Virus record (IMG/VR): IMGVR_UViG_2757320370_000007
Location: 73,719 to 137,718 of that record
DNA: 64,000 nucleotides
Strand: one strand, 5' to 3'
From: a virus
In this document: piece after piece, positions 4,692-39,068 of the stretch
Layout: each line of letters opens with the position of its first letter
How positions within the stretch are numbered: the first letter of the stretch is position 1
Made by a program: the position numbers and the translations under genes
Notes under the pieces: generated by a model
Told to the model about the DNA's origin: nothing
What the model saw: the letters and a program-made list of their open reading frames with translations, nothing else
Database searches by the model: none

Positions 4692-4752
4692 TTAAGTAAA
4701 CATATATATATTACTTATAAGTCAATATTACCATGATATTTTTCTATGTCAA
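4692..4752 (-). promoter_or_regulatory. SigA promoter of the agr-like operon with an inverted copy of the phage repeat motif downstream
   Basis: TTGACA-16-TAATAT with extended TG (4752-4725); TTAAGTAAACATATAT at 4692-4707. Confidence 0.65.
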
Positions 4753-4784
4753 CTATTAATTACAAATAAAAAAGAACAAGTTTT

Positions 4785-5780
4785 TCAACTTGTTCCCGCA
4801 GGGTATAGTCTGTTTATAGTTTTTAGGTTTAGACAGTCTTTAGATAACCTGTGTACTGAAAGTTCACCGTAATCAAACCTCCGGCACACCTCTAATATTT
4901 CTTGTCTTTCAAAAACTCCTCTCTCTTCATATAAGTCTTTTGCATATTTAACCATTCCAGACTTCCTAATGTTTAGAGGTACTAATTCCTTATAATCAAG
5001 CCACCTAGATATGTTTTTAATTTTTCGACTCACAAAATTTCTAGGAGCCACTCCAAAATAGGTTGTATTCATATCTGCTGACCTAAATATATACCCATTA
5101 CTCACCAAAGTTATGTCTCTTGATGATTTCATCTTCACCTGTAGATTTGCATTACTTTTTACGTAGATTGTTTGATTGGCTGCTCTTATCAATAATGTCA
5201 CTAATTTTTCCGATACTTTCAATTTTCTGATCGTTGTTTCTCCATCTGCATCTAAATTTTTTAAAGTGAGGATATTATTTTCTTGATCAATGTCCGCTAA
5301 TTGCAATCGAAGTATCTCTGAGTACTCCCTTCCCATCAAACCCTCGAATAATGCTAGAACTAACGCTCTATCTTGTTCGTTTGACAATCTCCCGATTATG
5401 TCATTTATTTGTTTTTCGGTATATAAAAATTCTAAACTAGAATCTATAAAACTGCTTATAAATTCTTCAGATAAACCCGCCCCTAATGGATTTATATTAT
5501 TATCCCTAAGATCATTTTTTATTGCCCATGTTATATATTTTTTCATTTGAGACAAGGCATCACGACTTGAGTTGTAAGTGGTGGGAGAAAGCAACTTCAT
5601 CACTTGCCCAATCTCATTTACGTTGAAATTATATAAGTCTCTCCCCAATTCTTCCTCTACATAAGCCGCTCTTAGTAAAATTCTTGAGTACACAATTTTA
5701 GTTGATTCCGACAATCCCTTTAAATACCGTTCTTTTTGTTCAGCGTTGAAGAATTCATTCCCGTATATATTGTTAGCCAA
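4785..5780 (-). CDS. yopR: Master lysogeny repressor MrpR/YopR(SroF)-like, tyrosine-recombinase fold
   Basis: FNAEQKERYL, ELGRDLYNF, RALVLALFEG, LVPLNIRKSG resemble YopR; no HxxR motif; likely TTG start 5780 behind GGGAG. Confidence 0.8.
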   Translation of the reverse strand: MANNIYGNEFFNAEQKERYLKGLSESTKIVYSRILLRAAYVEEELGRDLYNFNVNEIGQVMKLLSPTTYNSSRDALSQMKKYITWAIKNDLRDNNINPLGAGLSEEFISSFIDSSLEFLYTEKQINDIIGRLSNEQDRALVLALFEGLMGREYSEILRLQLADIDQENNILTLKNLDADGETTIRKLKVSEKLVTLLIRAANQTIYVKSNANLQVKMKSSRDITLVSNGYIFRSADMNTTYFGVAPRNFVSRKIKNISRWLDYKELVPLNIRKSGMVKYAKDLYEERGVFERQEILEVCRRFDYGELSVHRLSKDCLNLKTINRLYPAGTS

Positions 5781-7113
5781 CTGTAACACTCCCTTGAACA
5801 TATTTTTCAAAATATTCTATAACCATTTTTCTGAGAGGATTAGAATTTATTCCTCTTTTGCTCTTATCATTAAATATTTCAACCAGTTTTTCATCTTTAA
5901 AATTAATGTTTCCGATATACTCCTTAAGTTCTTTTAATGGTTTGTTGGTATCCTGAAAATGTTTTGCTATTACAGTATATCCCAAGAACATTAATGGATG
6001 GTTTATCAAGGTATTTGAATATTTGCGTGGGTCTAATATGAACTCATCTACATAGTATCCAAACAAGTACTTATAAAAGTTTATTAAATATTCAGATACT
6101 TCATCAACGTCTAATCCACTTTTTAGATTAAAAGAATGCTCTATCCCATATGACATTATATCGAATGTTGTTAATTGTCCTGTTATTTCGCTTATTTTGG
6201 GTGCGGAGGCGATCTTACCCTTTTTAAACTCAGACTTCGGATGCTGTTGTAGTTCTTTAACAACTAGATCTGAATTTTTCACAGATAATAACTCTTTTCT
6301 TCTCTCTATTTTAACCGGATTTATTGTATTTATTTGTCCAAAATACTTTTGTGCTTTCGGAGTGTCGTAAGATCTAATAGACAGTATCATATCTTGATTT
6401 AAATATTCATTCATTGTCATGGCTCTCGAACCACCCTCTAAACGGTGAAATCCATCTAATATTGAGACCACAGCTCCATCGTTAATTGTAAACAATCTTG
6501 TATTTTCATTGTAAGTAAATGGTTTTACCTCGTTCGAATAAACATTTAAAGTAATCATATCTTCAAGGTAATCATCGTTAGCCATTTCAGAAGCAATACT
6601 TTTAACACTATTTTTGTTTAGATACGGAGTTGGAACGACTCCATCTCTTTTCATTACGTATACGGCGCTTCTTTGAGTTTTATAATCATAAAAGATTAAC
6701 TGAGAATTAGACATCTGTACCAAAAATGACATTTTAACAGATGTTAAAAAACTATCTTCTCTTATTTTTTTCACATCTTCAATAACTATAGGGAGCATCA
6801 ATCTATTTTCAAAACCATAGACCTCTTTAATATTTTGGTGTGCCATTTCAATCTCATTTTCAGAAAACCAGCGTTCTGGAGACATGTCATCGTAACCAGT
6901 TACTTCATGTATTACTTCCGTGATGACGCACAGTAATGATTCACTGGCTGCCGATAATGCTTGATCTCCTTTCGATATATCTTCAAAGGTTCCCAATGGA
7001 ACACCTTTATCCTTCAATATACTATTTGTTTGATGGACCTTTTTTCTTGTTCCTTTTATTTCCCTAAAACGTTCTTGAATATGTCCCTCTAGTTCTTCTC
7101 TGTCTTTTTTCAT
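5773..7113 (-). CDS. yopQ: YopQ(SroE)-like protein with DGQHR/ParB-DndB-type domain
   Basis: ILDGFHRL motif; 446 aa; immediately upstream of and overlapping yopR, as in SPbeta. Confidence 0.75.
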   Translation of the reverse strand: MKKDREELEGHIQERFREIKGTRKKVHQTNSILKDKGVPLGTFEDISKGDQALSAASESLLCVITEVIHEVTGYDDMSPERWFSENEIEMAHQNIKEVYGFENRLMLPIVIEDVKKIREDSFLTSVKMSFLVQMSNSQLIFYDYKTQRSAVYVMKRDGVVPTPYLNKNSVKSIASEMANDDYLEDMITLNVYSNEVKPFTYNENTRLFTINDGAVVSILDGFHRLEGGSRAMTMNEYLNQDMILSIRSYDTPKAQKYFGQINTINPVKIERRKELLSVKNSDLVVKELQQHPKSEFKKGKIASAPKISEITGQLTTFDIMSYGIEHSFNLKSGLDVDEVSEYLINFYKYLFGYYVDEFILDPRKYSNTLINHPLMFLGYTVIAKHFQDTNKPLKELKEYIGNINFKDEKLVEIFNDKSKRGINSNPLRKMVIEYFEKYVQGSVTVG

Positions 7114-7172
7114 CGTTTACATACACCCCTCTGATTATTGAGTTATTGTAACATAGTTATAAAAATCTATTT

Positions 7173-7937
7173 TTAGCAAAAATATTTTAGAATATAATTT
7201 TGAGAAGTGCTTGTGTAAATATCGGCCAATACATCTTTGTCTGTTATTTTATTATCATTGATAATTTTCTGTCTTGCCGCCTTAAAACAAGATAAACAAA
7301 AGATATCAGTTCCTTCTTCTGGCGTAAATTGCCTAAAGCAGTTTTTCTCGACACATATCTTATCTTTAACTGCTACCGCCTTACCGTATGGCCTATATCC
7401 GGCCTTACGCATAGAATCTACCCAACTTAACCCCATCCCCCGGAGAACCTTCTGAGATGGCTTCAAGTTCATGATGTCGTATTCTTTACTTGTTGGTATA
7501 TACCCTAATTTTTTAATTGTTTGTTTTAGTTCTAAAATTGCGTTATCGTTTGTCGCGTATTGAGCATTTGCCATTTTAACATCTGCCACACAAACTATTT
7601 CTGACCATCCGTAGTGTTTGCATATATAGTCATAACTAGGTAGCAAGCTTGGTGTAGACGACTCATATAATACTTTAGACACTTCTCCATATTCTAGGGC
7701 TAATATCTTTAAATTACTGACTGCCTTAATTTTGTTTACGTTTATTAAATACTCTTCTTTATTAAGTACCCCACACAATTTTAAAAACTCAGGGAAAGTT
7801 ATATTTAACTTGTTTTTCAGGGTTTTCCATGCAGGAATATCTCCTCTATTTTTATCATACAGCTCAGTTGTTAAATATCCTCCAACTTTAGACGAGACTT
7901 CTTTTACTCTTTTTACCAACTCTTTATCAATAGTCAT
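7173..7937 (-). CDS. Protein with homing-endonuclease-associated repeats and C-terminal Zn finger
   Basis: Repeated units such as IKKLGYIPTSKEYD...SWVDSMRKAG; C-x4-C...CLSC. Confidence 0.55.
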   Translation of the reverse strand: MTIDKELVKRVKEVSSKVGGYLTTELYDKNRGDIPAWKTLKNKLNITFPEFLKLCGVLNKEEYLINVNKIKAVSNLKILALEYGEVSKVLYESSTPSLLPSYDYICKHYGWSEIVCVADVKMANAQYATNDNAILELKQTIKKLGYIPTSKEYDIMNLKPSQKVLRGMGLSWVDSMRKAGYRPYGKAVAVKDKICVEKNCFRQFTPEEGTDIFCLSCFKAARQKIINDNKITDKDVLADIYTSTSQNYILKYFC

Positions 7938-7958
7938 ACCTTTAGTATCTCCTTACTA

Positions 7959-8426
7959 TCAATATTCTATTCTCATCTTATTCGACATAAGATGGCCCTT
8001 TCCTTTATTTGTATCCACTAAAACATCTTCTACCAAATAAACTATCTCTTTACACTTACTGCAATTCCATGTTTTTCTTTTATATTGTGATTCTGCTGTA
8101 TAAGTTGTTCCACACTTACAATCAACCTTAATCACTATTGTTTGATTACTGTATGCTTTATTTAAAATTTCTTCTTCAGTTTTTTGAATAGATACAATTT
8201 GATTACGATGAACTGAAAATTTATTATGTACTTTAAAATCGGCAACTAAATTTGAATTCAATCCAAAGTATTCGGCACCTATTGTGGTTACAAATTTCTC
8301 ATCATTTTTATAACATTGCATCCATTCATCTATCTGACTATTCGAGAGCGGAACTGTATTCTTAATTCCACTGTTTAACGTGTAAGTCATTATATAGAGA
8401 GTGTTACTATCTTCGTTATTCATCAA
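7959..8426 (-). CDS. Hypothetical protein with C-terminal Zn ribbon
   Basis: CKCG...CSKC; GGAGGTGA RBS. Confidence 0.6.
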   Translation of the reverse strand: MMNNEDSNTLYIMTYTLNSGIKNTVPLSNSQIDEWMQCYKNDEKFVTTIGAEYFGLNSNLVADFKVHNKFSVHRNQIVSIQKTEEEILNKAYSNQTIVIKVDCKCGTTYTAESQYKRKTWNCSKCKEIVYLVEDVLVDTNKGKGHLMSNKMRIEY

Positions 8427-8662
8427 TCAATTATCACCTCCAATAGATAATTTACTTCATTAGATCTAAAAGTCAAGTGATAAATAAAACAAAAAAGACT
8501 CTTACATATAAATAATATCATATGTATTGAGCCTTTTATATATTTATTTGTCGATTTATGTAGTTTTTTTATTACATGTTGTTTTTATGTAGTTTTAAAA
8601 TATGCTTCAGACACACATCCAATTACAACTGTCAAAGCATTATCCCCTCACCTTTTACACTC

Positions 8663-8977
8663 TTATTCAGTTGTTAGATGAATAACATTATCTTTAATGG
8701 TCATCTCACTAACAAATTCGACATCGCTTATACTCAGACCTCTTCCTCCAAGTAGTCTTTCGCCTACTGCGACCTTTAAATGATATGTGCTGTCTTCTGT
8801 AAGTTCCTGTTGGCAACGATACTTAGACTGCCACACATAGCGTTGTTTATCTTGCTCAAAAACATAGGTATGTAGATTCGCTGGGCGAAAGTATCTGTCC
8901 GTATAATCCACACCGTAACTTACTTCGATTAATTTCCCGATGATGTCAGTCTTGTTGTTATCCATATCGACCACCAT
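8663..8977 (-). CDS. Hypothetical protein
   Basis: ORF track; AAGGATGG RBS-like. Confidence 0.55.
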   Translation of the reverse strand: MVVDMDNNKTDIIGKLIEVSYGVDYTDRYFRPANLHTYVFEQDKQRYVWQSKYRCQQELTEDSTYHLKVAVGERLLGGRGLSISDVEFVSEMTIKDNVIHLTTE

Positions 8978-9064
8978 CCATCCTTTTAAAATGTTTAATA
9001 AACTTTGATTAAATTCATTGTACTATATATCATTTAATATGTATATGTTTATATTATAAATAAT

Positions 9065-9247
9065 TTATTTTCTTCTTTTCCTTACAACAAAATTGTCTAT
9101 GGTATCAAAAATTCTATATAATTTAGTTATAAAGTCAATCAAGTCATCTGGATTATTGCTCCGTATACTGGTGTTAATCCAAGTCTCAACTTTTGTAACA
9201 TTGTCTTTGAAAACAAGTTTCTGTATGACGTACCTCTTAGTTGTCAT
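9065..9247 (-). CDS. Hypothetical protein
   Basis: 60-aa ORF behind GGGAG RBS. Confidence 0.5.
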   Translation of the reverse strand: MTTKRYVIQKLVFKDNVTKVETWINTSIRSNNPDDLIDFITKLYRIFDTIDNFVVRKRRK

Positions 9248-9369
9248 TTCTGCGATCTCCCGTTGTAATTATTTCCCTATGATTTTCATTATCGGTCTGA
9301 TATATTATAAAGACATAGTTGATTAACTCTCTGACACTCAGTTAGAGAGAATTTTTTATGTCTATAGAA

Positions 9370-9432
9370 TGGAACGATTATCGTTCCAGTTAAACATATT
9401 ATCAATATACTATTACAAGAACTTCAAGTCAA
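9370..9432 (-). promoter_or_regulatory. SigA promoter toward the repression module plus a perfect 19-bp palindromic operator
   Basis: TTGACT-17-TATATT (9432-9404); TGGAACGAT-T-ATCGTTCCA at 9370-9388. Confidence 0.7.
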
Positions 9433-9472
9433 TAGTCAATAGAGAATTGTTTACAATAAAGGGAGCAATAAT

Positions 9473-9682
9473 ATGCCTTGGGTTGAAATCACACTAGATA
9501 AAATACTAATCACAAAGAATATGACCAGGAGAGAGTTGTCTAGAAGAACAAAAATCAGACACTCGACAATTAATGAGTTATGCAATAATACCGCAAAACA
9601 AATACCATTGAAGAATATTACTTTAATATGTGATGAATTAGAAATTGAGGTCGGGGAATTATTTAAATTTCATAAAGGATAG
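9473..9682 (+). CDS. Cro/C1-type HTH regulator (YopO/YopS-like)
   Basis: LSRRTKIRHSTINELCNN...ICDELEIEVGELF XRE pattern; AAGGGAG RBS. Confidence 0.85.
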   Translation: MPWVEITLDKILITKNMTRRELSRRTKIRHSTINELCNNTAKQIPLKNITLICDELEIEVGELFKFHKG

Positions 9683-9687
9683 AAATT

Positions 9688-9735
9688 AAAAAAGAACGCT
9701 TCTCCATTTTTCTAACCCGGAGGAACGTCTTTTTA
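9688..9735. terminator. Bidirectional terminator between HTH gene and mazF
   Basis: Imperfect inverted repeat flanked by A- and T-tracts between convergent genes. Confidence 0.55.
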
Positions 9736-9738
9736 ATT

Positions 9739-10146
9739 TTATGTTCTCGAAAATGTTCTGGTGGTGCTAATTATTAATGCCCTTTCCAACTCTCGTTCAT
9801 ATCTTTTTGGCATGTCCGTTATTTTGTGTATTAACAAACTCTTGTCGATAGTAAAGTGTTGTTCAAACAACACCACACTGTCTTTGTGAAAACCAATTTC
9901 ATTTGCCTTCATATAAACGTGAGTGGGCAATTTTGCTTTTGTCATGCTGCTGGTGATTGGGCAAACCACCACGAAATTTGAGTGTAAATTGCTTCTATCG
10001 TTTGATATAACTATTGACGGTCTAACTCCTCTTTGTACTGATCCTTTTGATTCGCCTAAGTCTGCCAAAAAAATGTCAAATTGTTTAGTTACAATACTTT
10101 CTGCTCTTTCCATCACCATACTCATAATATCCACTCTCCGATTCAT
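9739..10146 (-). CDS. mazF: MazF/PemK endoribonuclease (EndoA/NdoA-like); alternative start 10125
   Basis: DIFLADL-GS.Q.GVRP-VISND-CPITS-KAKLPTHV-DSVVLFEQ-TIDK aligns with B. subtilis EndoA, including catalytic Arg and Thr. Confidence 0.92.
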   Translation of the reverse strand: MNRRVDIMSMVMERAESIVTKQFDIFLADLGESKGSVQRGVRPSIVISNDRSNLHSNFVVVCPITSSMTKAKLPTHVYMKANEIGFHKDSVVLFEQHFTIDKSLLIHKITDMPKRYERELERALIISTTRTFSRT

Positions 10147-10247
10147 TGATTTAATTTATTTATATTCTCTCTATTCGTTATGTACCTTCAATTCTATGTA
10201 CTTCTTCTTTAATATTCTATGTTTTAGTATTACTTATTTATATGTTT

Positions 10248-10276
10248 ATTATACATGTGCAATTAGATTATTGCAA
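10248..10276 (-). promoter_or_regulatory. SigA promoter of mazF
   Basis: TTGCAA-17-TATAAT. Confidence 0.75.
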
Positions 10277-10339
10277 CACTTATATTTACTATATACACTG
10301 ATTTGTCAATAGTATTTCTAAGGTACAAAACTTTCTCGT

Positions 10340-10386
10340 GGTTATTAGGAATAACCTATTGACAAAAAGGATATAAATGGTATTAA
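10340..10386 (+). promoter_or_regulatory. SigA-like promoter of rsfA-like gene with upstream palindrome
   Basis: GGTTATT-AGG-AATAACC at 10340-10356; TTGACA-16-TATTAA with extended TG. Confidence 0.6.
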
Positions 10387-10410
10387 ACCAAAAAGGAAGG
10401 GTTGTTTTAT

Positions 10411-10899: not shown

Positions 10900-10933
10900 T
10901 GTGGAGGGTTCTTTTTATGATGAAGTTCGTCTT

Positions 10934-11314: not shown

Positions 11315-11432
11315 TCCTTATATATAGATTTATATAATTTGATTAATTAAATGTAACACAAATCATATGAAAAAAACCAACCTAAATATTTGATTGGTTT
11401 ATGAAATCTACATTTCAATAAAATTTAAGGAA

Positions 11433-11669: not shown

Positions 11670-11760
11670 ACAACATCACGTCTTTTCTCATTATTTTATT
11701 TCATAAATATCATTTATCTTTGTTTTCGATCATATTCACTCTGTAGATCTCCCCAAAAAA

Positions 11761-18150: not shown

Positions 18151-18522
18151 AACGAATCACTCCTTATATTTTAGTTTGTCTTTATTCAAATATCTGGTAA
18201 GCCTCCATCAATTCATCAAGTGTATATTCCTTCATCATCGCTTTAGCATTTCTCCATCATGTTCAAGCGTGTTGTAAATTTGTTCTTCAACGATCAATTT
18301 TCTTGCCTTAGTCATTGTTCTGATGCCTCCTAGATATATATTTGATTTATCATTTCTATCCTGAGTTAATCCTATCACAAGATACAATTAGTGTGCATAT
18401 GTTTAGTATATAAATCTAAAATAAACTATTGACTCCTTTGACAACCACATATCCCCAAAGAATTACAACCACTGCAATAATAGGCCAGTCCCGTTTTACA
18501 ACACTGATTACATTTGACATGT

Positions 18523-19617: not shown

Positions 19618-19667
19618 ATAATACACTATCCGCAACAACAAGTCAATTATAATATATGTTTACTATA
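19618..19667 (-). promoter_or_regulatory. SigA early promoter with upstream repeat motif
   Basis: TTGACT-17-TATTAT; TATAGTAAACATATAT at 19652-19667. Confidence 0.75.
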
Positions 19668-19695: not shown

Positions 19696-20160
19696 TCACC
19701 CATCTATAATTATCACCTCGCCGCCAACATTCATGATCTCAGCTCTAAACCCTCCAGACTCCTCTATAATCCCAATCAATGCGCATCCCTTGTTCCAGAA
19801 CAAATGATCCTCCACGTTCTCACTAAAGCGCTCAGACGATCCATAAGCACGATATACGCACTTAGATGGAATATTCCATTCAATTTCCTCTTCATTCATA
19901 TAAATTTCATGAAACACAAATCTACCTTGAGGAGTACAGATAATTACACCTGAATAAGTGTAACCACAATCGGCAAACATGTTGATATCTTCCCAAGTAG
20001 CAATACTGTACTCTAAACCTGACTCTATCGCCTCTTGCTCAGTCTGGAATATGTATTCGGAGTAAATAACGTTACCTTTGTCAGAGAGTCTGTCCGTAGC
20101 GACAGCGGCGTAATACAACGTGATTTCGTTTCTTCTACTATAATCCTCGGCAATGTTCAT
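19696..20160 (-). CDS. Hypothetical acidic protein
   Basis: ORF track; AAGGGGG RBS. Confidence 0.6.
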   Translation of the reverse strand: MNIAEDYSRRNEITLYYAAVATDRLSDKGNVIYSEYIFQTEQEAIESGLEYSIATWEDINMFADCGYTYSGVIICTPQGRFVFHEIYMNEEEIEWNIPSKCVYRAYGSSERFSENVEDHLFWNKGCALIGIIEESGGFRAEIMNVGGEVIIIDG

Positions 20161-22125: not shown

Positions 22126-25100
22126 TTACTCTTCTTCAATAAAATTCCCTTCGTTATCATATTCTTCAACATCGATACTATCAATAAAAACGTCTTTAAA
22201 GAACTTAATATCATCTTTATTCAGAACAATCATTAATGCCTCATCTTCCACTTTAACATAAACTCTTTCTTCATCTTTATTAAAATCATATCCCGCGATG
22301 CCCTCTAAACTATCCAAAGTACCAGGATGAGCAAACAGAATCAATTCATTCTCTGACCAACAATATGTGAGAAGCTCCAGTTCGTCAGCGGTGATATCAT
22401 AATGAGAATCGACATACCCTATTTGCTTGGGTAGTAGTTTTTTACCCTCGGTGTTGATAAGGTTCATTTTATCCTGAATAAATTGGATGTTCATTTTTAT
22501 TCCTCCCGTTATATGTATGAATTAATTGTACTACACTTTTATACGCTGGGCCGTAAAACAAGAATTTTATCAATTGTTGATCATTTGCAGACTATTGCTA
22601 GTAATAAAAGCTTTAACTTCTGAAACACCCCAAACTTCTTTTGTCCAATCTTTTATTCCACTTACAATATTCTCTACCCTATTAAACTCAACTGAAATTC
22701 CTTCTTCAATGAGTTTATCAAGGCATGAAGAATGTCTATATATCTCCATTTGATAAAATTCTTTATGCTCATCTTCGATAAATAGACCTTTTTTCCCTAA
22801 AAAGCAGAGTTTGATTTTTTTCTGCTCTAGTTCTGATAATACATTTTCAAAATTCACAATAATCTTTTTATTTTTCATTTCATATTCCTCCGTGTTCTAG
22901 TGAAATCACTCGTTTAATCTAATTTATCTATGTTGTACGTTACGGTTATTTGAAACGTGCAAAAGCTCCCATTAGACTAAACAGATCGTCATGATTATCA
23001 TATCTCAAAGTACATCCACCTGCATTAATTGACACTTTTCCATTTTTAAGAAAAGTAATTACAAAACTAGAAAATCGTCCAGTAGTATATTTTTTCTTTC
23101 CTTTAATTTTATTACTGACGATATCTACAGTATGAGAATTTAGGCTATCTAAAAAATGTCTGTACATTTCTATTTGACTCATCATTTTTCATTCCTCCAT
23201 TTTATCCTAGTTTTCAATTGTTTCTATTTTTACCGTACCCTTAGATAAAAACGAATCTGTTAAGATGAACTTACCATTCATATCAAAAAATTCATTGTTT
23301 CCATCTTCCGATCTGAGAAATGTCGCCACTTTAGAAAATGAACCGTAGTTGATCAGATAAATGTTTCCATTTTCCATTCTATTTGCCTCCTATGTATTAT
23401 CCTATAAATACATTTTACACTACTCACAATATATATTAAATAGTTTTATATATGTTTACGTTATAAAATATGGTTTTTATCGGGTTAAATAATCGGTTTA
23501 ATCTTCAGCCAGTAGTTTCCGTTTAAATAAATATCTATTGTTCCATCTTCGTTGAACTTAGTATCTTTGGCTTTAGGAATATCAAGCCACGAATCTCTTC
23601 CGTTAACAAGTGTTGTTATCGCATTGGTTTGAACCTTGTTGATTTCTCTTATTTGGCCTCCTGCCATTTCGGGCTTCATTGTATTTTCAATGAACTGAAT
23701 TTCCTTGCCTTTCTCCAGCCACTTTTTGAATTGAGACATATTTTTAATTGTCATTATAATTTCCCCTTTTCATTTATTGTTTTGTTGATACGTGTTAAAT
23801 ACTGAAATACCGTTTCAACAAAACATTTTTCAGAATTGAATCGTTCAACATTAGACCGTTCGTAAAATTCCCCGATTACAAAACCATCTTTGCGACTTAC
23901 AACCCAGGAACCAGAATAACGATTAAGTTCAGGTATATGTATTTTTTCAGACATTAACCGATCCTCCAATGTAGTTCATTCCATTATGGCAAGTCAACCA
24001 TTACCCAACCTTCATTATCATATCCTTGATAAACAACATATTCTTCATTCTCTTCTGTTACCATTAGGTCAACTCCAGTCCCATCTTCGTCATAGGCTGA
24101 AAAGTAAGCTCTATCCTCATCGGCCTCTGCTGCTTCGATTCCTGTCCAATATCCAGTGCTAATCAGAAAGTTCATAACCTTATGTTTATTCATTATTTTT
24201 ACCCTCCTTAATATTTTCTTTCTGAAATCCGGTTTTTATTTTATTTATTTATGCTTCGATTACATTTCTTTCATCTGCCATGGCCCATTTAAAATATGCT
24301 TTATCTCTTGCTTCTTCAATGTCCCCTGCCCAGATCCCATGCCTTTTTGCTGTTCCACTATTTGTAACATCTACATGAAAGTATTTTTGTTTTTGTTCTG
24401 TTTCGGTTTTTGTGGCTTCATTCGGTGTCAAACACCCGTTAAGAAGCGAATATTCAATATGTTGTTTTATCATATCAATATTTTTATCTATCAGGATTTC
24501 TGTATTCTTTATTGCAGAATGTTTATCTACACTGTTATGAATAAAAGCAAGACCAGTTTTAACTAATGATGTATTAAACGTTCCATCTTCATTTTGGTGA
24601 GTAAAACATTCAATTCCGTTATATTGAAACCCTTCTCCATCCACTTTTAAAAATCCATGTTTCTTAGTTGCAATATAAAATTCCATATTTATTCCTCCTA
24701 TTACTTTCTTGATGAAATTATCATTTCACGTTGTCTTGATTAGACTTAAATTTACTGCGTCTGTCTGCTGCATATTCTTTTTTGAAAGTCTTCATAAACC
24801 ATGTGTTAAAACCTCTTAGATTTGCAAATGATTCATCATATGCTTTCTTTGCTTCTTTCCATTCAGGCATAGCTCTTACATGGTCTGGAGTCATTCCCAA
24901 AGCGTTCTTGCCATATTTATTAAATCCTTTCAATACATCGGAACAGGCGTTTGTTTGTTTTTGAAGTTTTTGTCCATTTGCTTTTGCTTCTTCGTAGATC
25001 ATATGTATTACCTCCCTAATTTAGATTAGCCTTCTACTTTAATAACAATATCAATCATCTCGTCCAGATCATCAACCAGTTTCTCATTCACTTTAATTTC

Positions 25101-25280: not shown

Positions 25281-25332
25281 AGTATATCATGAGTTAATCG
25301 TAATTACAATACAATTATATATGTTTACTTTA
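25281..25332 (-). promoter_or_regulatory. SigA early promoter with upstream repeat motif
   Basis: TTGTAA-17-TATACT with extended TG; TAAAGTAAACATATAT at 25317-25332. Confidence 0.75.
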
Positions 25333-30755: not shown

Positions 30756-30789
30756 TATGTAGTTGTTATTTCGCTACTTCTTATTCATA

Positions 30790-30841
30790 ATAATACGCCT
30801 GTTAACACATTTAGTCAATATAAATATATATGTTTACTTTA
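30790..30841 (-). promoter_or_regulatory. SigA early promoter with upstream repeat motif
   Basis: TTGACT-17-TATTAT; TAAAGTAAACATATAT at 30826-30841. Confidence 0.75.
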
Positions 30842-30999
30842 TAAATTAAATGAGAAGGAGTTTTTTTCTCTACTAATCTTCTCATTACATTTTATTCATC
30901 ACTATGTATATTATTCATCAGAAATACGGGTTTATATATTTTATCATGAATACTTATGCATCAATAAGCCGATAAACTACTCTTTCATGAAAACATAAT

Positions 31000-31737
31000 T
31001 CAGGACACCAGATATTTGAATTCATCAGTAAATTGAACACCCATTTCCCAAAATTTAATGTATTCTTCCATCTGTCCTTCAAATGCTGCCTTAACTGATG
31101 CATATTCATTGAACCAATCAGCTTCAGGATTCCAAGTAATTTGTTTTACCACAAACATTTTGAGCAATAAGAGTGTATTCTTGTTTGCTTCCTTCATAAA
31201 AGAAAACACGGACAGTTGGAGCAATTAAATCATAAGAGGTGATAACTGGAGACCCATCATTTGCAGAATACAAAGTCTGAGATATGCCAAAAACCCCAAA
31301 TTCTCCATTGTGAATAACATTCAAACCTTCCATGATAATTCCTCCTGGAATATGTATTTAACTTCTTAAATCAATTATAAGCGATACGGTTATTCATTAC
31401 AACAGTAATTTATATGTTTATTATATAATTATATATTTCCAACTAATCAAGCAACCGTATGGATATCAACATTATCGCCATCATGGACAATACGGTCAAT
31501 TGTGCAACATGTGGTTAATTCGGTGATATCCTGATTCGTTCCTGATATGCGGAAGATTACAAGGCCAGATTTACGGATGAGACGGATATATCGGATTGAC
31601 ATTTTAGTAGTCTCCTTTATTAGTGATTTGAATAGGTGGAACTATCTTAAGATTAGAACACCGATGATATATTTATCCTTTAAGGATTGTTTGCGATCCC
31701 ATTTGGATTTCAATACTGCTAATTGTGCTTGTGACAT
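31000..31737 (-). CDS. Four small hypothetical genes (31000-31224, 31124-31333, 31447-31602, 31642-31737)
   Basis: Last two read manually behind GGAG/GGAGG RBS (51 aa and 31 aa). Confidence 0.55.
31374..31425 (-). promoter_or_regulatory. SigA early promoter with upstream repeat motif
   Basis: TTGTAA-17-TATAAT; TATAATAAACATATAA at 31410-31425. Confidence 0.7.
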
Positions 31738-31937
31738 TTGTGAAACCTCCGTTTGGTGAGTTTGATCTGTTTATTAACTTGAGATAAGTATATCATGGAT
31801 ATTAGTATTTGTATATATGTTTATCTTATAAATATTATAGTGTTGGGTACATTGTGCTGCTTGATGCTTGTGTCGTATAAGAGTTGCTATAGTGAGTTGT
31901 AAGGCATTATGTGAGTGATAAGGTACAAACAGGTGTA

Positions 31938-32099: not shown

Positions 32100-32130
32100 A
32101 ATTAGATGCCTCCCTTTTTATTGGATAGTG

Positions 32131-32274
32131 TTGACTATAGTCGATGGATTGTGTAAACTGTAAGGGAAAAGAGGGAACGGTGTTGTGTCCGTTCCATTCA
32201 TAGTCATGAGGCTTATTGGATGCCTAGCGCTTGCGTGTAGAACCTTTACGAGAGGTTTTAGACGCTTTCTTTTT
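32131..32274 (+). ncRNA. Predicted antisense antitoxin RNA (SR6-like, about 32166-32274) with its own promoter and terminator
   Basis: TTGACT-17-TAAACT (32131-32159); 15-bp stem plus TTTCTTTTT terminator (32233-32274); overlaps toxin 3' end. Confidence 0.7.
32174..32195 (-). terminator. Terminator hairpin of toxin mRNA
   Basis: GGAACGG-N8-CCGTTCC followed by CTCTTTT. Confidence 0.6.
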
Positions 32275-32394
32275 GCTTATCTTCTTCTTAGGTTTGTTGT
32301 GAATGTGAGTAATAATATCTATGATGTCTTTAACAAACAATCTAATCAGAGTCAAAGTTGCAAGAGTGCCTAACCATTTCTGGTAATCATCCAA
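32224..32394 (-). CDS. yonT: YonT-like type I toxin, 56 aa (absent from ORF track)
   Basis: MDDYQKWLGTLATLTLIRLFVKDIIDIITHIHNKPKKKISKKKASKTSRKGSTRKR; TTG start, GGGAGGAGGTGA RBS, TGGTATAAT extended -10. Confidence 0.75.
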   Translation of the reverse strand: MDDYQKWLGTLATLTLIRLFVKDIIDIITHIHNKPKKKISKKKASKTSRKGSTRKR

Positions 32395-32459
32395 GGGAAT
32401 CACCTCCTCCCTTACAAGATAATTATACCATATATTCTATGGGAATAGAGTGAGAATGA

Positions 32460-33620
32460 GAGAATAGATGTGTATATATTGTGTATATTATATATATTTA
32501 CTTTATTAGATGAGATGAGGAATTGGAATGGATTGAGTAAGGCGTAGAATGGTAAGTGATAATACATATGACCTATAATGTCAGACTGTATTGTATAACA
32601 GATGATAACATTGATAGTACAGAGCGGACAGAGAGCAGACGAATGATATAGAGTGATCTTAGATAACTAACATTTGACTATTTAGTTATGATAACAATTA
32701 ACAATAATACTAACATAATAGATAACAAATAATAGTGCTCTGTGATGAACGTATTGTATTAATAACAATAATAACAATACATACTAACAAAGATAATATT
32801 ATACTAACAATAATAACAAATAGATGAAGCCTTAATTTTGCAAATTCGCGTTATCATTCGATTCGGGACGATATAAGTCCCACCCAATGGATGAGGCTAT
32901 GGAAATTTAAAATTAAAAAATGTGTGAGAATGTGCAAAATTTTAAATAAATATATGATGGATCATGCAGCATAATAGTAGTTGTTTGTCAAGTGTTATGT
33001 TATTGCTAAATGGCATGGAACATATATTCTATACCATTTAGAAGGGTATACCGGGGGTAGTTTACATTCTAAATACTGGTAATTATGGTAAATATCCCTG
33101 CATCTGTTCCACTCCCACACTCAGGTTATTTTTTCATTTTCATCTCCAGAAATTTATTCCCTCCTCTGATTTTCTCCAATATCCAGAAATTTTCCATTTT
33201 CTTATAAATCTCTCACAATTGTAATCGTAATTGTAATCGCAAACCCCTTGTATCTCCTGCATATTTTCATCTAATTTTCCCTCATTTCTATCCTATTTCA
33301 CCTCTTTTTTCTCCATTTTCTTCAAATAACCTTTATGTTTCCTGCACTTTTACGATTACACTACTTCCCACTAAATCCATCTCATTTCATCTCTCATCCC
33401 CAATCACCTCAAACCCTTGTTCCATATACGTTTTATCCCAATTCACACTCTCTAATTCCCTCTCTACGATTACACTAATTTCACATCACGATTACAATTT
33501 TATTCCTCTATTATCCCCATAGGGGAGGGGGTACTTTAACAGATAAAAAGGCAGCATCCATTTAACTAGACACTACCCCATATATAATATGTAATTTTAA
33601 TTCTGACTCTTATGTGTTAC
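32460..33620. other. Long non-coding tract with mirror strand asymmetry and short repeats
   Basis: Purine/AAC-AAT-rich left half, pyrimidine-rich right half; CGATTACA x5; GGGGGTASTTTA x2. Confidence 0.7.
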
Positions 33621-33629
33621 TAACTCTAT

Positions 33630-34454
33630 CTAATTATTTAATTCGCTTTTCAGCTTCTCAATTATGTATACTTGGCCTTTAGGAGTTACCTTTGTAGTCT
33701 TAGTGATCTTCTCTCCATATGAAGTATCAATAGTCCTTTCTTCTACTACAAACAATTTTTGATTCATCGCATATTGACTTGGTTCATTATTAACACTATT
33801 CTTTAGGATCAGTTTCCATTCACGCAGTTTATTATATAATTTCTTCTCACCAATATTAATTCCTTCATCCTGAATAATCTTGCTCAATTCTCTGACCAAT
33901 ATATTATCTTTACTTTTCAATACAGTTTCGGCAAACGTTACAAGCGGTTTATTTTCTTCAACTTGTAATTGCAACTGTTTCTTCTCTTTTAACTCCGAGA
34001 AATAGGCAATCGCTCTGTCTTCTTCAGATAAAGCTAAATATTGTTGTGCCGGATTATTTAATTGAGTTTTCATTCTTTTAAACTCGTTGATAAACTTAAC
34101 CTTTGCTTTCATTGCTTTTGGTGTAATATAGGACATTGCAACAATAACAAATCCTTCTTCCGTCATGTTAACCTTAGTATACATTTGCCCATTCTGTTCA
34201 TGTTTATAGAGGGTGTGCTCAAAGTTGAGCCGAGCAAAACCCTCTTCACCTGCTTCAATTAATTTCTCAATTTGCACTTGAATATCTCGCACAACATTCT
34301 TATGTTCCTTTTCAAATTCTTGTGTCAAAACTAAACTATCGGTTACTAATCTTCCATCTTGTTCAAATACTAATTGTCCATTCTCCAAAATCAAATCATC
34401 CACTCTCAATTTTGTTAAGCGTCTCACCTCAACTTCTTCCTCCCTGTAATACAT
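33630..34454 (-). CDS. Rha-family N-terminus fused to KilAC (ANT) antirepressor domain
   Basis: VTDSLVLTQEFEKEHKNVVRDI...MTEEGF; KPLVTFAETV...VRELSK...KVTPKGQVYI. Confidence 0.88.
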   Translation of the reverse strand: MYYREEEVEVRRLTKLRVDDLILENGQLVFEQDGRLVTDSLVLTQEFEKEHKNVVRDIQVQIEKLIEAGEEGFARLNFEHTLYKHEQNGQMYTKVNMTEEGFVIVAMSYITPKAMKAKVKFINEFKRMKTQLNNPAQQYLALSEEDRAIAYFSELKEKKQLQLQVEENKPLVTFAETVLKSKDNILVRELSKIIQDEGINIGEKKLYNKLREWKLILKNSVNNEPSQYAMNQKLFVVEERTIDTSYGEKITKTTKVTPKGQVYIIEKLKSELNN

Positions 34455-34480
34455 TTTTAATATAATTAAAATACCTATCT

Positions 34481-36256
34481 TTACTTTATATATTCTTCAA
34501 CAAATCTATTCCTTTCTCCAATCTCACTCACAACTAAATTCTCTCTAGCTCTTGTCACTCCCACATAAAACAATCTTGCTTCATCAATCAGATCACTTTT
34601 CTCGTGTGGAAACTTTTTATCCTCTACTCCAACCACAAATATATTATCAAACTCCAATCCTTTACTCGCATGAATACTCATTAACTTTACACAGTTTTCT
34701 TTATTCTTTCTCTTCGTGTTACTCACATAAGCAATGAACTTCTCTGGACTATTTGATTTCACGAATGTCTTTAACACTTCTAATGACTCTAATCGCTCTT
34801 CTCTATCTTCTTTATTTTTATATTTATCTACTATGTATTCTTCCATTTGAAACACTTTAATTATATTCTCAACCAAATGTTCGGCACTAATGTTTTTATC
34901 TTTCTGTAATCTCAAACGGTTAATATATCCTTCAAATTGTTCAGCGCTCTTTGCTTGTCTATAATCAGAATATTTCATATTAATCAATGTCTCATACATT
35001 GACATATCATTTACTCCAGAAAATTTCTTCATCTCAGTTAACAATTTCTCTGGAAAATAGGCTAATGGTTGATTTCTTAATTTGAACATTTCTAAGAATG
35101 CTCCATCATCATGTGGATTAATGATCAATTTCATATATGCCAGTATTCCTGCAATCTCTTTGCGTTTAAAGAAACTTCCATCATTGGTGATATCATATTC
35201 AATATCTTTTTTCTTTAATTCATTTTCCACAAATACAGAATGTGCATTAAGTCTATACAATACAGCAATTTCTTTTGGATTTCCCTGTTCAGCAATTAAC
35301 TTTTCAATTTGATTAGCAACTCTAATTCCTTCTTGTTCTCTGTTTGCTGAAGTATATATTTTAATACTTCCATCTTTTTGATTATGAGCAATAGCATCAG
35401 AATAATGTTCATAATCTCCATAGTAGCGTTTAATAAATCCATTTGCTTTGTCGACAATATTCCTAGCTGATCTGTAGTTGATGTCTAAATTAATAACAGT
35501 TGAGTCTTTCCATTCATCTGCAAAATTCATACAATACTCGGGATTCGACCCACGGAACGTGTATAGCGCTTGACGGTAATCAAACACGCAGAACATATTA
35601 TTAGACTTACACAATTCCTTCAGCAATAAATTCTGCACCAAGTTTGAATCCTGGTGTTCATCCACTAAAACAAACTCATATGTATATTTATTTGGATTCT
35701 TCTTCAACATATCTAAGCACATAATCATGTAATCATCGAAATCATGCAGTCCATTCTTATTCTTAAACTCCTCATACAACTTAAAATACCGTCTTAGTTC
35801 AATCTCACTATAATTACTTTCCTTGACCATAAACTCGTCCGTATATGTTCGGAGATAATTCTTCTGGTAACTAATAAATCCAATGATATCCTTAGTGTCA
35901 ATTTTCTCATTCCCACTACCAACGAATAACTTTTCAATTTGCCATTCCTTAATCATCTTATCGAACGTAACGAATATATTCTCCTTTGCCAATAATCTTC
36001 CACATACAGCATGGAATGTTCCAATGTTAACATCGACATATCCCATCTTTTTTAATTTCTTCTTCAGCTCATCAGCAGTATTGCTCGTAAAGCTAATTGC
36101 TAAGATATCTTGTTCTGATACAAAATGAGTTTCAATCAAATTTCTAATTCGCTCAATTAACACAGTTGATTTTCCTGATCCTGCACCAGCAATAACGGCT
36201 GCGGGTTGGGTATGGTGGTTTATGGCTAAAAGTTGTCCGGGGTTAAACTTAATCAT
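34481..36256 (-). CDS. UvrD/PcrA-like SF1 DNA helicase
   Basis: AGAGSGKST, VDEHQD, DYRQALYTFRG, NYRS, SIHASKGLEF, RLFYVGVTRA. Confidence 0.95.
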   Translation of the reverse strand: MIKFNPGQLLAINHHTQPAAVIAGAGSGKSTVLIERIRNLIETHFVSEQDILAISFTSNTADELKKKLKKMGYVDVNIGTFHAVCGRLLAKENIFVTFDKMIKEWQIEKLFVGSGNEKIDTKDIIGFISYQKNYLRTYTDEFMVKESNYSEIELRRYFKLYEEFKNKNGLHDFDDYMIMCLDMLKKNPNKYTYEFVLVDEHQDSNLVQNLLLKELCKSNNMFCVFDYRQALYTFRGSNPEYCMNFADEWKDSTVINLDINYRSARNIVDKANGFIKRYYGDYEHYSDAIAHNQKDGSIKIYTSANREQEGIRVANQIEKLIAEQGNPKEIAVLYRLNAHSVFVENELKKKDIEYDITNDGSFFKRKEIAGILAYMKLIINPHDDGAFLEMFKLRNQPLAYFPEKLLTEMKKFSGVNDMSMYETLINMKYSDYRQAKSAEQFEGYINRLRLQKDKNISAEHLVENIIKVFQMEEYIVDKYKNKEDREERLESLEVLKTFVKSNSPEKFIAYVSNTKRKNKENCVKLMSIHASKGLEFDNIFVVGVEDKKFPHEKSDLIDEARLFYVGVTRARENLVVSEIGERNRFVEEYIK

Positions 36257-36259
36257 ATA

Positions 36260-36920
36260 TATTTATCTTCTCCTCTGGTTTCAATTCTAAGTAAAATTTT
36301 CTTAAACATTTATAACAATTTCAAACTTTAGATGCTTAGTTGGAACAAATACATGTCCAGACTATAGACATCTTATTTATACATAAACAATAAGAGAAAA
36401 CTTGATATAACGTTCAAGAGCTTTTGAACTTGAACTTATCTCTTTAATTCCACACAATCGGATACGATACTCACCAAAATAACACCATCAATTTCAAACT
36501 CAAATTCACACATAAATTATAATGAAATTTCAACATGCCATTTCCGACCAACAACTATTCGGATTCAATCAGTGACTCCAAAATCATAAACAATAATAAA
36601 AGGAATCAGAGTTTAAAATTGATATGGGAATAATAAGTAAGATACAAGCATCCACAACGAAGATAATATTCAAAAATAGATATCAAAAATTCAAAATTCA
36701 AAACTTGCGTAGCGGACAATTTCCGAAGAGTTGGGAGCTACGCGACCATGGCTCTAAATACTGAGTCTATATATCTATATATCTATTATCTATATAATAT
36801 CTTTATACGTACCCGTTTATGCAGCATAAAACAACCAAGCGTCTGGTAATTTACGAACAGCATCTGGTAATTTCCGACCCGACTTCCTGCAAAAAACGGT
36901 TGTAGGTGAAAATGGCCTAA
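36260..36920. other. Non-coding region with iteron-like repeats (candidate origin)
   Basis: TCTGGTAATTT(A/C)CGA at 36842 and 36863 (21-bp period); TATATCTA-type tract 36768-36800. Confidence 0.5.
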
Positions 36921-36923
36921 TTT

Positions 36924-37592
36924 CTACACAGATAATTCATATTCCTCAAGTTTGTTATAATTCACATAATAATGGTTGTTGTATTTTGTAAATTCGAGTT
37001 CATCATTGTCATTGTATTGGTTATTATGACCAATTTTATGTGCAACTACATGAAGTAATTTTTCTTTCTTGAGTATATCTACATATTCTTTTACGGTAGT
37101 CTTGCCCAGTCCTGTGTCACGACATATCGTAATTACTGCTGAGTAGCAAAATTGATTTTGAACGATGCTCCTATTAATATAACTTTCAAAATAATACAAC
37201 AATCTAACTCCGGTATGACCAATCGTTCCAACTCTGCTCAAAATAGATAGTGGTAGTTGAGTATATTCTTTTTTTGGCGTAGCAAATTTCTTAAGATCAA
37301 GAGATATCAAGCTTGGAGTTGATCTCTCAATTTTAACAAAGTTATTTATGTATCCCCACTTATGTAGATTGGCGAGATGCTTCTTTAGTGTCCGGTTATC
37401 CGATATCTCCATTTTCATTCTAAGTTTAGGGATATCGATATAAATTTCACCACTTCCCCTATTCTCATAAATCAGATATTTAAGCCTTAGTAAAAGTGAG
37501 AATTCAACACTACCTATTTCACGGTCCCTTATAATTGCGTTAGACATCTGTATTACTGATTTATTAATTTTATGTTTATTCTTGTTCATCAT
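36924..37592 (-). CDS. Tandem winged-HTH protein, possible replication initiator
   Basis: Two helix-turn-helix-like segments (RTLKKHLANLHKWGYI; ICRDTGLGKTTVKEYVDILKKEKLL). Confidence 0.6.
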   Translation of the reverse strand: MMNKNKHKINKSVIQMSNAIIRDREIGSVEFSLLLRLKYLIYENRGSGEIYIDIPKLRMKMEISDNRTLKKHLANLHKWGYINNFVKIERSTPSLISLDLKKFATPKKEYTQLPLSILSRVGTIGHTGVRLLYYFESYINRSIVQNQFCYSAVITICRDTGLGKTTVKEYVDILKKEKLLHVVAHKIGHNNQYNDNDELEFTKYNNHYYVNYNKLEEYELSV

Positions 37593-37726
37593 ATGTTTCC
37601 TTTATATGTATAATTATTTTTTCATATACTAATTACCCCACATTTAGTGCGCGCAATTCATCGCCCATACTCTATTTCGCTTAAACATCATCCTTTCTGG
37701 CATTAACTTCAGTTCGATGAATTCAC

Positions 37727-38827
37727 TCAATTAATTTTACTCTCCTTTCGATCAATCATTTTTTGTGCTCCCGATTTCAATGTAGAAACGATACCGCCTT
37801 GTTGAGAAGTAATTAACATTATAAGTTCTTCTTTACTCAATCCCTCGAAAATATTATCCGACACCTCTTTTTCAATTCTTAAACTAGGACTATTGGATAA
37901 GTCCTTGCCGTGAATATAATGTTTGAGAGATCCATAACCACTTTGATTTAATTGCTCCCTCATGTCTTCAATAGATCCACCAGTTTCTTCAATCCATCCT
38001 GTCATAACATTTCTCAAACTGTGAAACACAACACCCTTATCATCGTTGAAGTTGAATTGTTCATTTATTCCTTTAAACATACTCTGGATAGTTGTCTTGC
38101 TTAGGTGAAATATTTTGTTATCGTTATATCTGTTGTAATACTGTTGTTCTTTAATTTCTAATAGTTCTTTATAAAACTCTTCAGAAATAGGCTTGGTGTT
38201 TGACTTCTTGCCTTTATCAATTACTGTGACTTCGTAATAATCATTGTGTTTATGCTTCTTGATATCACCCCAAGTTAGATTGAGAATGGCGCTTTTGCGA
38301 AAACTTGTTCTAGCAGCCAACTTAATCAGTGCGGCCTTTTCAACTCCCTTCTTTTGAGTTAAAACAAACTCTCTAACCAGCTTTGCTTCAGCATCATTCA
38401 TTTCGCCATGCTTGTTATCGTCAACATCTAATGCATCAACTTTTACACTTGCTTTCTTTACAGGGTAATCGTTGGTTTCAAGGAACTCATACAAACTAAA
38501 TATCGGGGCCATAAATTTATTAATTGTAGTATTAGAATATGGTGTGTTTTCTTCTAAGTGTGTTTGATAACGAATGATTGTTGCATTCTTAACTATGATG
38601 TCATCAGTAGTTAGTTCGTTGAGTTCCTTACTTCTATACCACATAAAAAACATTCTGATTGCCTTCTCATAAATCACAGAAGTTGATTCGTTTTTCTTTT
38701 TGTATTTAGATAAGAAAGCTTGAATATCCTCGCCTACTGTATCTTGATGTAATCCAACCAGATTATTTAATGCTGCGTTCATCATAACACCTCCAATTAT
38801 ATATGTTTGTTTTATTGTTGGGTTCAT
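37727..38827 (-). CDS. yopP: YopP(SroD)-like tyrosine recombinase-family protein
   Basis: RTSFRKSAIL, DKGK, FHSLRN, HY; YSNTTINK N-domain resembles YopP; usual LGH is LNQ. Confidence 0.75.
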   Translation of the reverse strand: MNPTIKQTYIIGGVMMNAALNNLVGLHQDTVGEDIQAFLSKYKKKNESTSVIYEKAIRMFFMWYRSKELNELTTDDIIVKNATIIRYQTHLEENTPYSNTTINKFMAPIFSLYEFLETNDYPVKKASVKVDALDVDDNKHGEMNDAEAKLVREFVLTQKKGVEKAALIKLAARTSFRKSAILNLTWGDIKKHKHNDYYEVTVIDKGKKSNTKPISEEFYKELLEIKEQQYYNRYNDNKIFHLSKTTIQSMFKGINEQFNFNDDKGVVFHSLRNVMTGWIEETGGSIEDMREQLNQSGYGSLKHYIHGKDLSNSPSLRIEKEVSDNIFEGLSKEELIMLITSQQGGIVSTLKSGAQKMIDRKESKIN

Positions 38828-39016
38828 CTGTTAATCTAAGTTGTTCTGGTATATGTTTTCCTATCCGTAAATCTATATTAACACATATAATTATTTGCGT
38901 ATATATATTTACTTTATAAATAGTGCTATTTAGTAAATTTATTTTAAGATTTACGCAATTCTTACTCGCTATATATAATGAAGCAAACAATTCGTAATCT
39001 GGCCTCTTCTATTTTA

Positions 39017-39068
39017 TATAGTAAACATATATATTATTATTGACTAATTATACTCCTCGTGTTATATT
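39017..39068 (+). promoter_or_regulatory. SigA promoter of the RNA polymerase operon with upstream repeat motif
   Basis: TATAGTAAACATATAT at 39017-39032; TTGACT-17-TATATT with extended TG. Confidence 0.75.

Follow-up and report, generated by a model that had tools for sequence, protein, structure and literature searches.

The closest described systems are the MrpR/SroF repressors of the SPbeta-like phages of Bacillus. In SPbeta, MrpR binds the repeated element SPBRE and occupies ten SPBRE promoter regions in chromatin affinity purification sequencing (ChAP-seq); it shifts PaimR DNA, and the activity of PaimR and PyosX is cut about five-fold (Kohm et al. 2023, PMC10516654). The corresponding protein of phage phi3T, SroF (= MrpR), clamps a 26-bp non-palindromic, AT-rich box (Phi3TRE) as a monomer that reads 24 bp, and each phage has its own specificity of repressor and box (Chmielowska et al. 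2025, bioRxiv 10.1101/2025.11.27.690993). Here we describe a box of this general kind in a 64,000-nucleotide stretch of viral DNA (IMG/VR record IMGVR_UViG_2757320370_000007, positions 73,719 to 137,718; hereafter the window). A first reading of the letters, called here the original prediction, had reported a repeated 16-bp operator upstream of early promoters and had assigned it, by analogy with SPBRE, to the MrpR and YopQ proteins of the phage; its statement that MrpR of SPbeta binds SPBRE is borne out by the published work. We find that the repeat is a true regulatory element restricted to phage DNA, and that it is probably the operator of a monomeric master repressor of the MrpR/SroF family encoded by the same prophage.

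The 16-mer TAWAGTAAACATATAT is present in eight copies in the window when one mismatch is allowed, against 0.02 ± 0.14 expected, and none of 100 shuffles reached eight. With up to three mismatches there are 31 copies (6.25 ± 2.45 expected), and each position listed in the original prediction does hold a match. The full box is about 20 bp long and AT-rich, TTTATAAAGTAAACATATAT, and includes a conserved 5' TTTA that had been overlooked before. No dyad symmetry can be read in it. For wider scans we used a matrix of 26 columns with the consensus gaTTTATAAAGTAAACATATATAcaa and about 20-22 informative positions, refined on the prophage island described below and applied with a cut-off of 14 bits.

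The window corresponds to G000:C1:4097557-4161556 in an 8.54-Mb genome of one contig. Its G+C content is 33.7%, compared to 49.7% for the genome, and it lies within a low-G+C island of about 176 kb (genome positions from about 4,024,000 to 4,200,000). This island is an SPbeta-like prophage with adjoining MrpR and YopQ homologues, a YonO-family RNA polymerase, other phage genes and a rightward late block; its gene content also comprises helicases, an Ant/Rha protein, an integrase, MazF and AgrB. The assignment of the 860 amino acid (aa) polymerase to the YonO family is based on a shared PHROG profile, BLASTP against SPbeta YonO giving almost no similarity. The nearest homologues of the window genes are found in Paenibacillus genomes and in large IMG/VR phage contigs, which points to a member of the Paenibacillaceae as host. 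A megablast search with 20 kb of the window gave no match in the phage collection, and there is accordingly no close sequenced relative in that collection.

With the matrix, 30 sites of at least 14 bits were found in the 176-kb island, where about 0.15 would be expected by chance and none of 20 Markov shuffles yielded more than one. These copies range over genome positions 4,031,024 to 4,196,815 (166 kb), far outside the window. Another 12 sites lie in a second low-G+C island of 53 kb, and only 3 in the remaining 8.3 Mb. The distribution of the stricter matches (one mismatch at most) is similar, with 17 of 20 in the 176-kb island and the other 3 in the second one (3.224-3.277 Mb). The island copies are intergenic in 26 of 30 cases, though non-coding DNA makes up only about 14% of the island by a crude map of open reading frames (ORFs), and for 26 of the 30 the next gene is co-oriented with the box.

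These numbers bear on the suggestion that the box is a module similar to an UP element, read by the alpha subunit of the host RNA polymerase and setting basal promoter strength only. The box is indeed AT-rich and lies at -40 to -62 of many promoters, and the two registers described below match the proximal and distal UP subsites. However, its information content of about 25-30 bits, with invariant G and C, is far above that of UP elements, host DNA holds no more than the 3 matches in 8.3 Mb, and prophages of the same bacterial family carry different boxes; the copies found in spacers, in leaders or in inverted orientation do not fit either. On the strength of the first three of these points a host UP element was rejected, and we consider it very unlikely.

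The same scan is informative on whether the box could be the promoter of the YonO-type RNA polymerase of the phage. The boxes are co-oriented with the genes, and a YonO-family enzyme is encoded in both box-bearing islands. Yet YonO transcribes late genes in SPbeta, and the late structural block here, about 36 kb, contains no box, for which reason this candidate was rejected, and the boxes are coupled to -35/-10 pairs of the sigma-A type. The probability left to it is close to negligible.

The relation of the box to sigma-A promoters is pronounced. A promoter scoring at least 9.5 is within reach of 16 of the 30 prophage copies, compared to 6% of random positions, and one scoring at least 9.5 out of 12 is found at an offset of 5-8 nt for 7 of the 30, compared to 0.6% of random positions (binomial P ~5e-10). 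Two groups of offsets stand out, +5 to +8 and -3/-5. The box stops 5-8 nt short of the -35 hexamer in nine copies, for example those at window positions 2192, 19652, 23448, 25317, 30826, 31410 and 39017 and at genome position 4060642. In ten copies the box overlaps the -35, so that its last TAT or TATAC starts a TATACA-like hexamer placed 17 nt before the -10; examples are window 9041, 18395, 31813 and 38901, and genome 4031024, 4038755, 4054857, 4068891 and 4086913. One copy (genome 4047739) occupies the spacer of a TTGACA-17-TATAAT promoter and provides its -10, and one (window 4692) is inverted and spans about +10 to +26 relative to the promoter that follows the mrpR terminator. Several copies of a variant box, TAAAGTRAAAATACATAT, stand directly before a ribosome-binding site (RBS), and several box copies are without a clear promoter. 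At genome positions 4047235, 4065695, 4066783 and 4087711 (loci L039-L041) the variant box is found 5-10 nt before the RBS with no separate promoter between, a placement which the SPBRE copies abutting the RBS of yopM and yopV in SPbeta resemble.

The original prediction had placed the box at a fixed 7 nt before the -35. This spacing was recovered at 25317, 30826, 31410 and 39017, and also at 23448 where the -35 is poor, and the 5 nt given for 19652 is correct. A fixed distance is therefore an adequate description of the listed copies but not of the element as a whole, for which it is one of at least three arrangements. Similarly, among the copies that had been called degenerate, those at 9041, 18395, 31813, 32490 and 38901 are strong by the matrix (25-29 bits), and the weak ones are 10238 (9.8 bits) and 10278 (2.6 bits). 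When the copies are aligned, the conserved parts are limited to the two hexamers and the box with its TTTA flank, while linkers, spacers and flanks vary; duplication of whole promoter segments was rejected on these grounds.

The window encodes a good candidate for a protein reading the box. Its mrpR gene (Table 1) is the only member of the MrpR/SroF family in the genome, the Pfam MrpR models finding no other gene there. The product is 29% identical to SPbeta YopR and matches PDB structures over its full length (9rd5, 2.5e-30; 8a0a, 6.3e-29), with 8bj6 also matched (~1e-28 to 1e-30). The yopQ-like gene directly upstream encodes a protein with 25% identity to SPbeta YopQ (E 5e-28) and 52-56% identity to the product of the mrpR-partner gene in relatives. 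Both genes stand at the end of an operon running from 8977 to 4785 which is headed by box 9041, and this box is the probable autoregulation site of the yopQ-mrpR operon. The residues aligned to the DNA-reading helix of the phi3T protein are KF..HR in phi3T, KF..TN in SPbeta and RN..SR here, as read from the printed alignment and assuming that the PDB chain numbers are 2 ahead of the numbering in the paper; such differences would fit a different DNA specificity.

The relatives of the repressor provide a further line of evidence, the nearest of them having at most 50% identity. In P. tuaregi, a 6-kb low-G+C islet with yopQ (53%) and mrpR (repressor identity 50%) has four box-like copies, TTTATAAARTAAAYATAT, and Paenibacillus sp. 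GCM10012306 (locus L045; repressor 49%) has one inverted copy just after mrpR. At 45% repressor identity, three complete IMG/VR phages of 164-175 kb contain 34-42 copies each of TTTAATRARTAAATATAT, against 0-1 in controls, and these copies are strongly strand-biased and adjoin -35 hexamers. The three phages (L051, L052 and L053) are contigs with terminal repeats. Four prophage regions of the same bacterial family, with repressors of 36-40% identity (BLASTP), gave no match of at least 13 bits in 100 kb each, and the strict box consensus is not enriched in their genomes. One of the four, G289b, has a repeat of its own, TGATAAAATAATAC, which abuts the -35. G289b (L024-L028, G289:C1:4,485,001-4,585,000) is a large SPbeta-like prophage from the same bacterial family; the 11-nt core of its repeat, GTATTATTTTA, is found in 15 copies in 100 kb, and the copies that were read abut a TAGACA or TTGAxx -35. 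In a maximum-likelihood tree, in which the IMG/VR repressors were not placed, the repressor of the window forms a supported clade (96/93) with those of L045 and L046. Close variants of the box thus accompany repressors of 45-50% identity, and none is seen at 41% or less. As judged from these comparisons, box specificity changes with the repressor lineage, and this co-variation favours a phage-lineage-specific reader over the host polymerase. The assignment to MrpR and YopQ in the original prediction has thus gained ground only for MrpR, which is the sole family gene, has SPBRE-like placement of the boxes and co-varies with them by clade, with binding remaining a prediction; co-variation as such cannot separate MrpR from YopQ, since both genes travel together.

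A reader other than MrpR has to be weighed at this point, either the YopQ/SroE-like protein, which is ParB/DndB-like, or a small unannotated regulator. The constant pairing of yopQ with mrpR is compatible with it, SroE is a second repressor with a mechanism that is not established, and boxes occur in the second island, which has no MrpR. On the other hand, the dispersed boxes of SPbeta and phi3T are bound by MrpR/SroF itself, as seen by ChAP-seq, electrophoretic mobility shift assay and crystal structure, and in a BLAST comparison the second island has no yopQ homologue. An uncharacterised protein common to both islands (75% identity; window 19696-20160) is unmatched in the box-bearing P. tuaregi islet. 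We find it quite improbable that a protein other than MrpR is the reader.

The second island (G000:C1:3,224,000-3,277,000, L035-L037) is a phage-like, low-G+C segment of 53 kb encoding a YonO-family polymerase of 928 aa, a tyrosine integrase, terminase, portal and tail genes and a mazF-like gene. Three of its 12 boxes lie 6-7 nt before a TTGACT, TTGACA or TTTACA hexamer. No MrpR was found in it by protein, profile or Pfam search, and a 336-aa protein beside its integrase was rejected as a hidden MrpR, as it has no similarity by BLASTP or profile. Either this island is regulated in trans or its boxes are read by another factor, and the simplest reading of the sequences would be control in trans by the repressor of the large prophage.

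The identification of the box as the MrpR operator thus has to face some contrary observations. One is the second island itself, with 12 boxes but no MrpR gene. Another is the lack of convincing similarity of the box to SPBRE or to the phi3T box, so that homology of the sites themselves cannot be claimed: no match of at least 13 bits to the box matrix is found in the 94 kb of SPbeta that were scanned (40,001-134,416), the SPBRE consensus AAATACAAAWAATATGTATA is not matched, and the common ATATGT/ACATAT core is short, in opposite orientation and of a kind that may arise by chance in AT-rich DNA. Moreover, a monomeric repressor site does not require strict co-orientation with the gene, although SPBRE is biased likewise. 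Finally, the majority of the copies are found 5' of the -35 or across it, with centres near -51.5 (offsets +5 to +8) and near -41.5 (offsets -3/-5), one helical turn apart. Activator sites, and likewise the two subsites of an UP element, are classically located at these positions.

The latter observations would be in line with the box being the site of a transcription activator of phage or host origin, working in a class I/II manner, or a dual activator/repressor site. In addition to the two registers and the strict co-orientation with transcription, the class overlapping the -35 has poor -35 hexamers (TATACA-like, 4/6), as is often seen in activator-dependent promoters. But an activator would not work from the spacer and -10 (genome 4047739), from the inverted leader position (4692) or from directly before ribosome-binding sites; SPbeta boxes of the same geometry are bound by a repressor, PaimR being repressed from -43; and comparison with the P. 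tuaregi islet, which carries boxes, revealed no common candidate for an activator. An activator site, or a dual one, is in our opinion unlikely, and the MrpR operator remains the probable identity of the box.

If so, one molecule of the integrase-fold repressor would clamp each non-palindromic box of about 20-24 bp, whether this abuts the -35, overlaps it, fills the spacer or lies in the leader. The bound repressor would block access of the host sigma-A RNA polymerase to about 20 early promoters, presumably including those of its own yopQ-mrpR operon, of the YonO-type RNA polymerase operon and of the agr-like cassette, and the prophage would stay silent. As in SPbeta and phi3T, an antirepressor may bring about release. 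The box would in this way do the job of SPBRE in SPbeta and of Phi3TRE in phi3T with a different sequence specificity.

No Sar-like antirepressor was identified in the prophage. At 2839-2852 on the minus strand of the window there is a LexA-like box with GAAC-N4-GTTC intact, directly downstream of a TTGCAT-17-TACTAT promoter, and it precedes an orphan gene for a 126-aa protein (2261-2641, minus strand) located after the agr-like operon. This gene could, by position only, be an SOS-controlled antirepressor, and the box and the gene together give a positional lead. The 126-aa protein has no homologues among 5.8 billion proteins and no relatives in the PDB, and its single-sequence structure model (predicted local distance difference test score, 57) is too poor for a fold search. 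LexA boxes are not enriched in the window overall (14 vs 10.6 expected).

According to the original prediction the agr cassette and mazF are both wired to the box. For the agr cassette this is well in line with our data. The inverted copy at 4692-4707 is real; relative to the promoter TTGACA(4752)-16-TAATAT(4725), which comes after the mrpR terminator, it occupies about +10 to +26. The order mazF, three small genes, yopQ, mrpR, membrane protein and agrB is conserved in L051-L054. An alignment of the intergenic region after mrpR shows the terminator, the TTGAC of the -35, an extended -10 and the inverted box in the window and at the same place in four relatives (L045, L051, L053 and L054), each of which carries its own variant of the box. 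This conserved footprint speaks for the predicted control of the agr-like operon by way of the box. That the regulon extends beyond its own phage, with the second island silenced in trans and co-released, and with an agr-type cassette under a conserved inverted box in the place of arbitrium, is a possible but rather doubtful extension.

For mazF the case is weaker. A half-box does lie over the -10 at 10238, where the 9.8 bits overall are due to the missing TTTA flank, but the copy at 10278 is not credible with its 2.6 bits. Sequence similar to the half-box is present in two relatives, L051 and L053, and this may be plain promoter conservation. In the same two relatives the mazF-like promoter region (L051:5340-5400 and L053:5355-5415) has a perfect GAAC-N4-GTTC box, AGAACAAATGTTCG, at the place where the mazF promoter of the window has a degenerate MrpR-type box.

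UACAU is the motif cut by Bacillus MazF. The sequence TACATATG, which contains it, has 37 copies in the prophage island (4,024,000-4,200,000), where about 8.6 would be expected; most of them have the orientation of transcription, and most lie away from start codons. The related k-mers AATACATATGA and AATACATATG are among the most frequent ones in prophage G289b and in locus L049.

Downstream of box 32490 there is a small ORF of 59 aa starting from GTG (32224-32403, minus strand), with a hydrophobic stretch and a polybasic tail. It is preceded by an extended -10 promoter and a strong RBS, and fits an earlier remark, from the same first reading of the window, on a YonT-like toxin.

Table 1. Positions of boxes and selected genes in the window; bits refer to the box matrix
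Feature	Position	Strand	Score or match	Context
Box, weaker copy	774..789	-	19.7 bits	intergenic
Box	2192..2207	-	23.8 bits	6 nt 5' of TTGACA-17-TAATAT
Inverted box	4692..4707	+	one mismatch, 25.7 bits	5' leader of membrane-protein/AgrB operon, promoter 4752-4725(-)
mrpR/sroF-family gene, 341 aa	4785..5810	-	Pfam MrpR_N_CB 9.4e-26, MrpR_C_cat 1.9e-15, both above cut-off
yopQ/sroE-like gene	5773..7113	-	phrog_5732 9e-98	directly 5' of mrpR
Box	9041..9056	-	26.3 bits	overlaps TATACA-like -35, 17 nt, TACAAT; promoter offset -5
Half-box, doubtful	10238..10253	-	core 18.4 bits, 9.8 overall	overlaps -10 of mazF promoter TTGCAA-17-TATAAT
Box	18395..18410	-	25.4 bits	overlaps weak -35 (TGCACA-17-TAGGAT)
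Box	19652..19667	-	exact, 27.0 bits	5 nt 5' of TTGACT-17-TATTAT
Box	23448..23463	-	one mismatch, 29.3 bits	7-8 nt 5' of weak -35 (TTTAAT/TTAATA), -10 TAAAAT
Box	25317..25332	-	exact, 31.5 bits	7 nt 5' of TTGTAA-17-TATACT
Box	30826..30841	-	exact, 33.9 bits	7 nt 5' of TTGACT-17-TATTAT; precedes 759-aa gene and 1030-aa methylase-helicase gene
Box	31410..31425	-	two mismatches, 24.2 bits	7 nt 5' of TTGTAA-17-TATAAT
Box	31813..31828	-	28.5 bits	offset -3; 3' TAT starts TATACA -35; 17 nt on, TATACT
Box	32490..32505	-	26.3 bits	about 50 nt 5' of extended -10 promoter (TGGTATAAT, near 32432)
Tyrosine integrase gene	37727-38827		Pfam Phage_integrase 2e-11
Box	38901..38916	-	26.9 bits	offset -3; overlaps -35 (TATACG-17-TAATAT) before integrase gene
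Box	39017..39032	+	exact, 31.7 bits	7 nt 5' of TTGACT-17-TATATT; precedes 122-aa gene, then YonO-family RNA polymerase gene
Weak box	39423..39438	+	15.2 bits	just before YonO-family gene
YonO-family single-subunit RNA polymerase gene, 860 aa	39476..42058	+	phrog_8308 9e-179; SPbeta YonO in same family (E 0)

For comparison we derived SPBRE from the SPbeta record; its sequence is AAATACAAAWAATATGTATA, and each of the 11 copies points in the direction of transcription. A copy at aimR and one at yonX precede the -35 by 6-7 nt, and that of yonT covers the -35. Five more (yorE, yonP, yorM, yorZ, yosX) are contained in TAGACA-N17-TATAAT promoters, and the remaining three (yopM, yopV, yonX) are placed downstream of the -10 and ahead of the ribosome-binding site. 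The two elements are alike in being multi-copy, non-palindromic, AT-rich and phage-confined, with all or nearly all copies co-oriented, and both are found 6-7 nt ahead of the -35, across it, within the spacer and past the -10. Both are associated with early promoters, and in both phages a cognate repressor of integrase fold is encoded beside yopQ. Some sites even have counterparts: box 9041 at the head of the operon ending in yopQ-mrpR corresponds to PyopM, box 39017 before a small gene and the YonO gene corresponds to PyonP (yonP-yonO), and box 32490 upstream of a gene for a small hydrophobic-basic peptide can be compared with the site at yonT. Many further early operons likewise have a box ahead of them. 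In contrast, the sequence is unrelated, the repressor is only 29% identical and there are about 30 copies here against 11 in SPbeta. Most copies here are upstream of or over the -35, while five of the 11 SPBRE copies are in the spacer. The host is also different, being here a member of the Paenibacillaceae, and an agr-like cassette is found where SPbeta has arbitrium.

With Phi3TRE the box has in common that it is a long, asymmetric and AT-rich operator, and its 20-22 informative positions fit a footprint of 24 bp. An asymmetric box of this length is as the monomer-clamp mode of SroF predicts. It differs from Phi3TRE in sequence, its binding by the repressor is predicted from sequence, and the phi3T system has a Sar-like antirepressor which is not identified here. 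Compared to operators of the lambda type, the likeness is that both would hold the prophage silent by blocking early promoters. However, lambda uses CI dimers on palindromic sites in two control regions, whereas about 30 asymmetric sites are scattered here across more than 160 kb, and their presumed binder is no helix-turn-helix dimer.

Our data extend the MrpR/SroF repression system, recently described in SPbeta-like phages of Bacillus, to large phages of the Paenibacillaceae, and outline the early genes that the repressor likely controls in a 176-kb prophage not studied before. The agr-like quorum-sensing cassette and the second prophage-like element would, as candidates for control by the same repressor, make a concrete test case, and the graded box variants matched to repressor divergence could be used to study clamp-like DNA reading. 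Like the systems of SPbeta and phi3T, the present one combines a cognate repressor, a dispersed box found in phage DNA only, placement at early promoters and a specificity that depends on lineage. The kind of mechanism is thus one already known from these two phages rather than a new one, and what is new is the specificity, the third described for an operator of this type.

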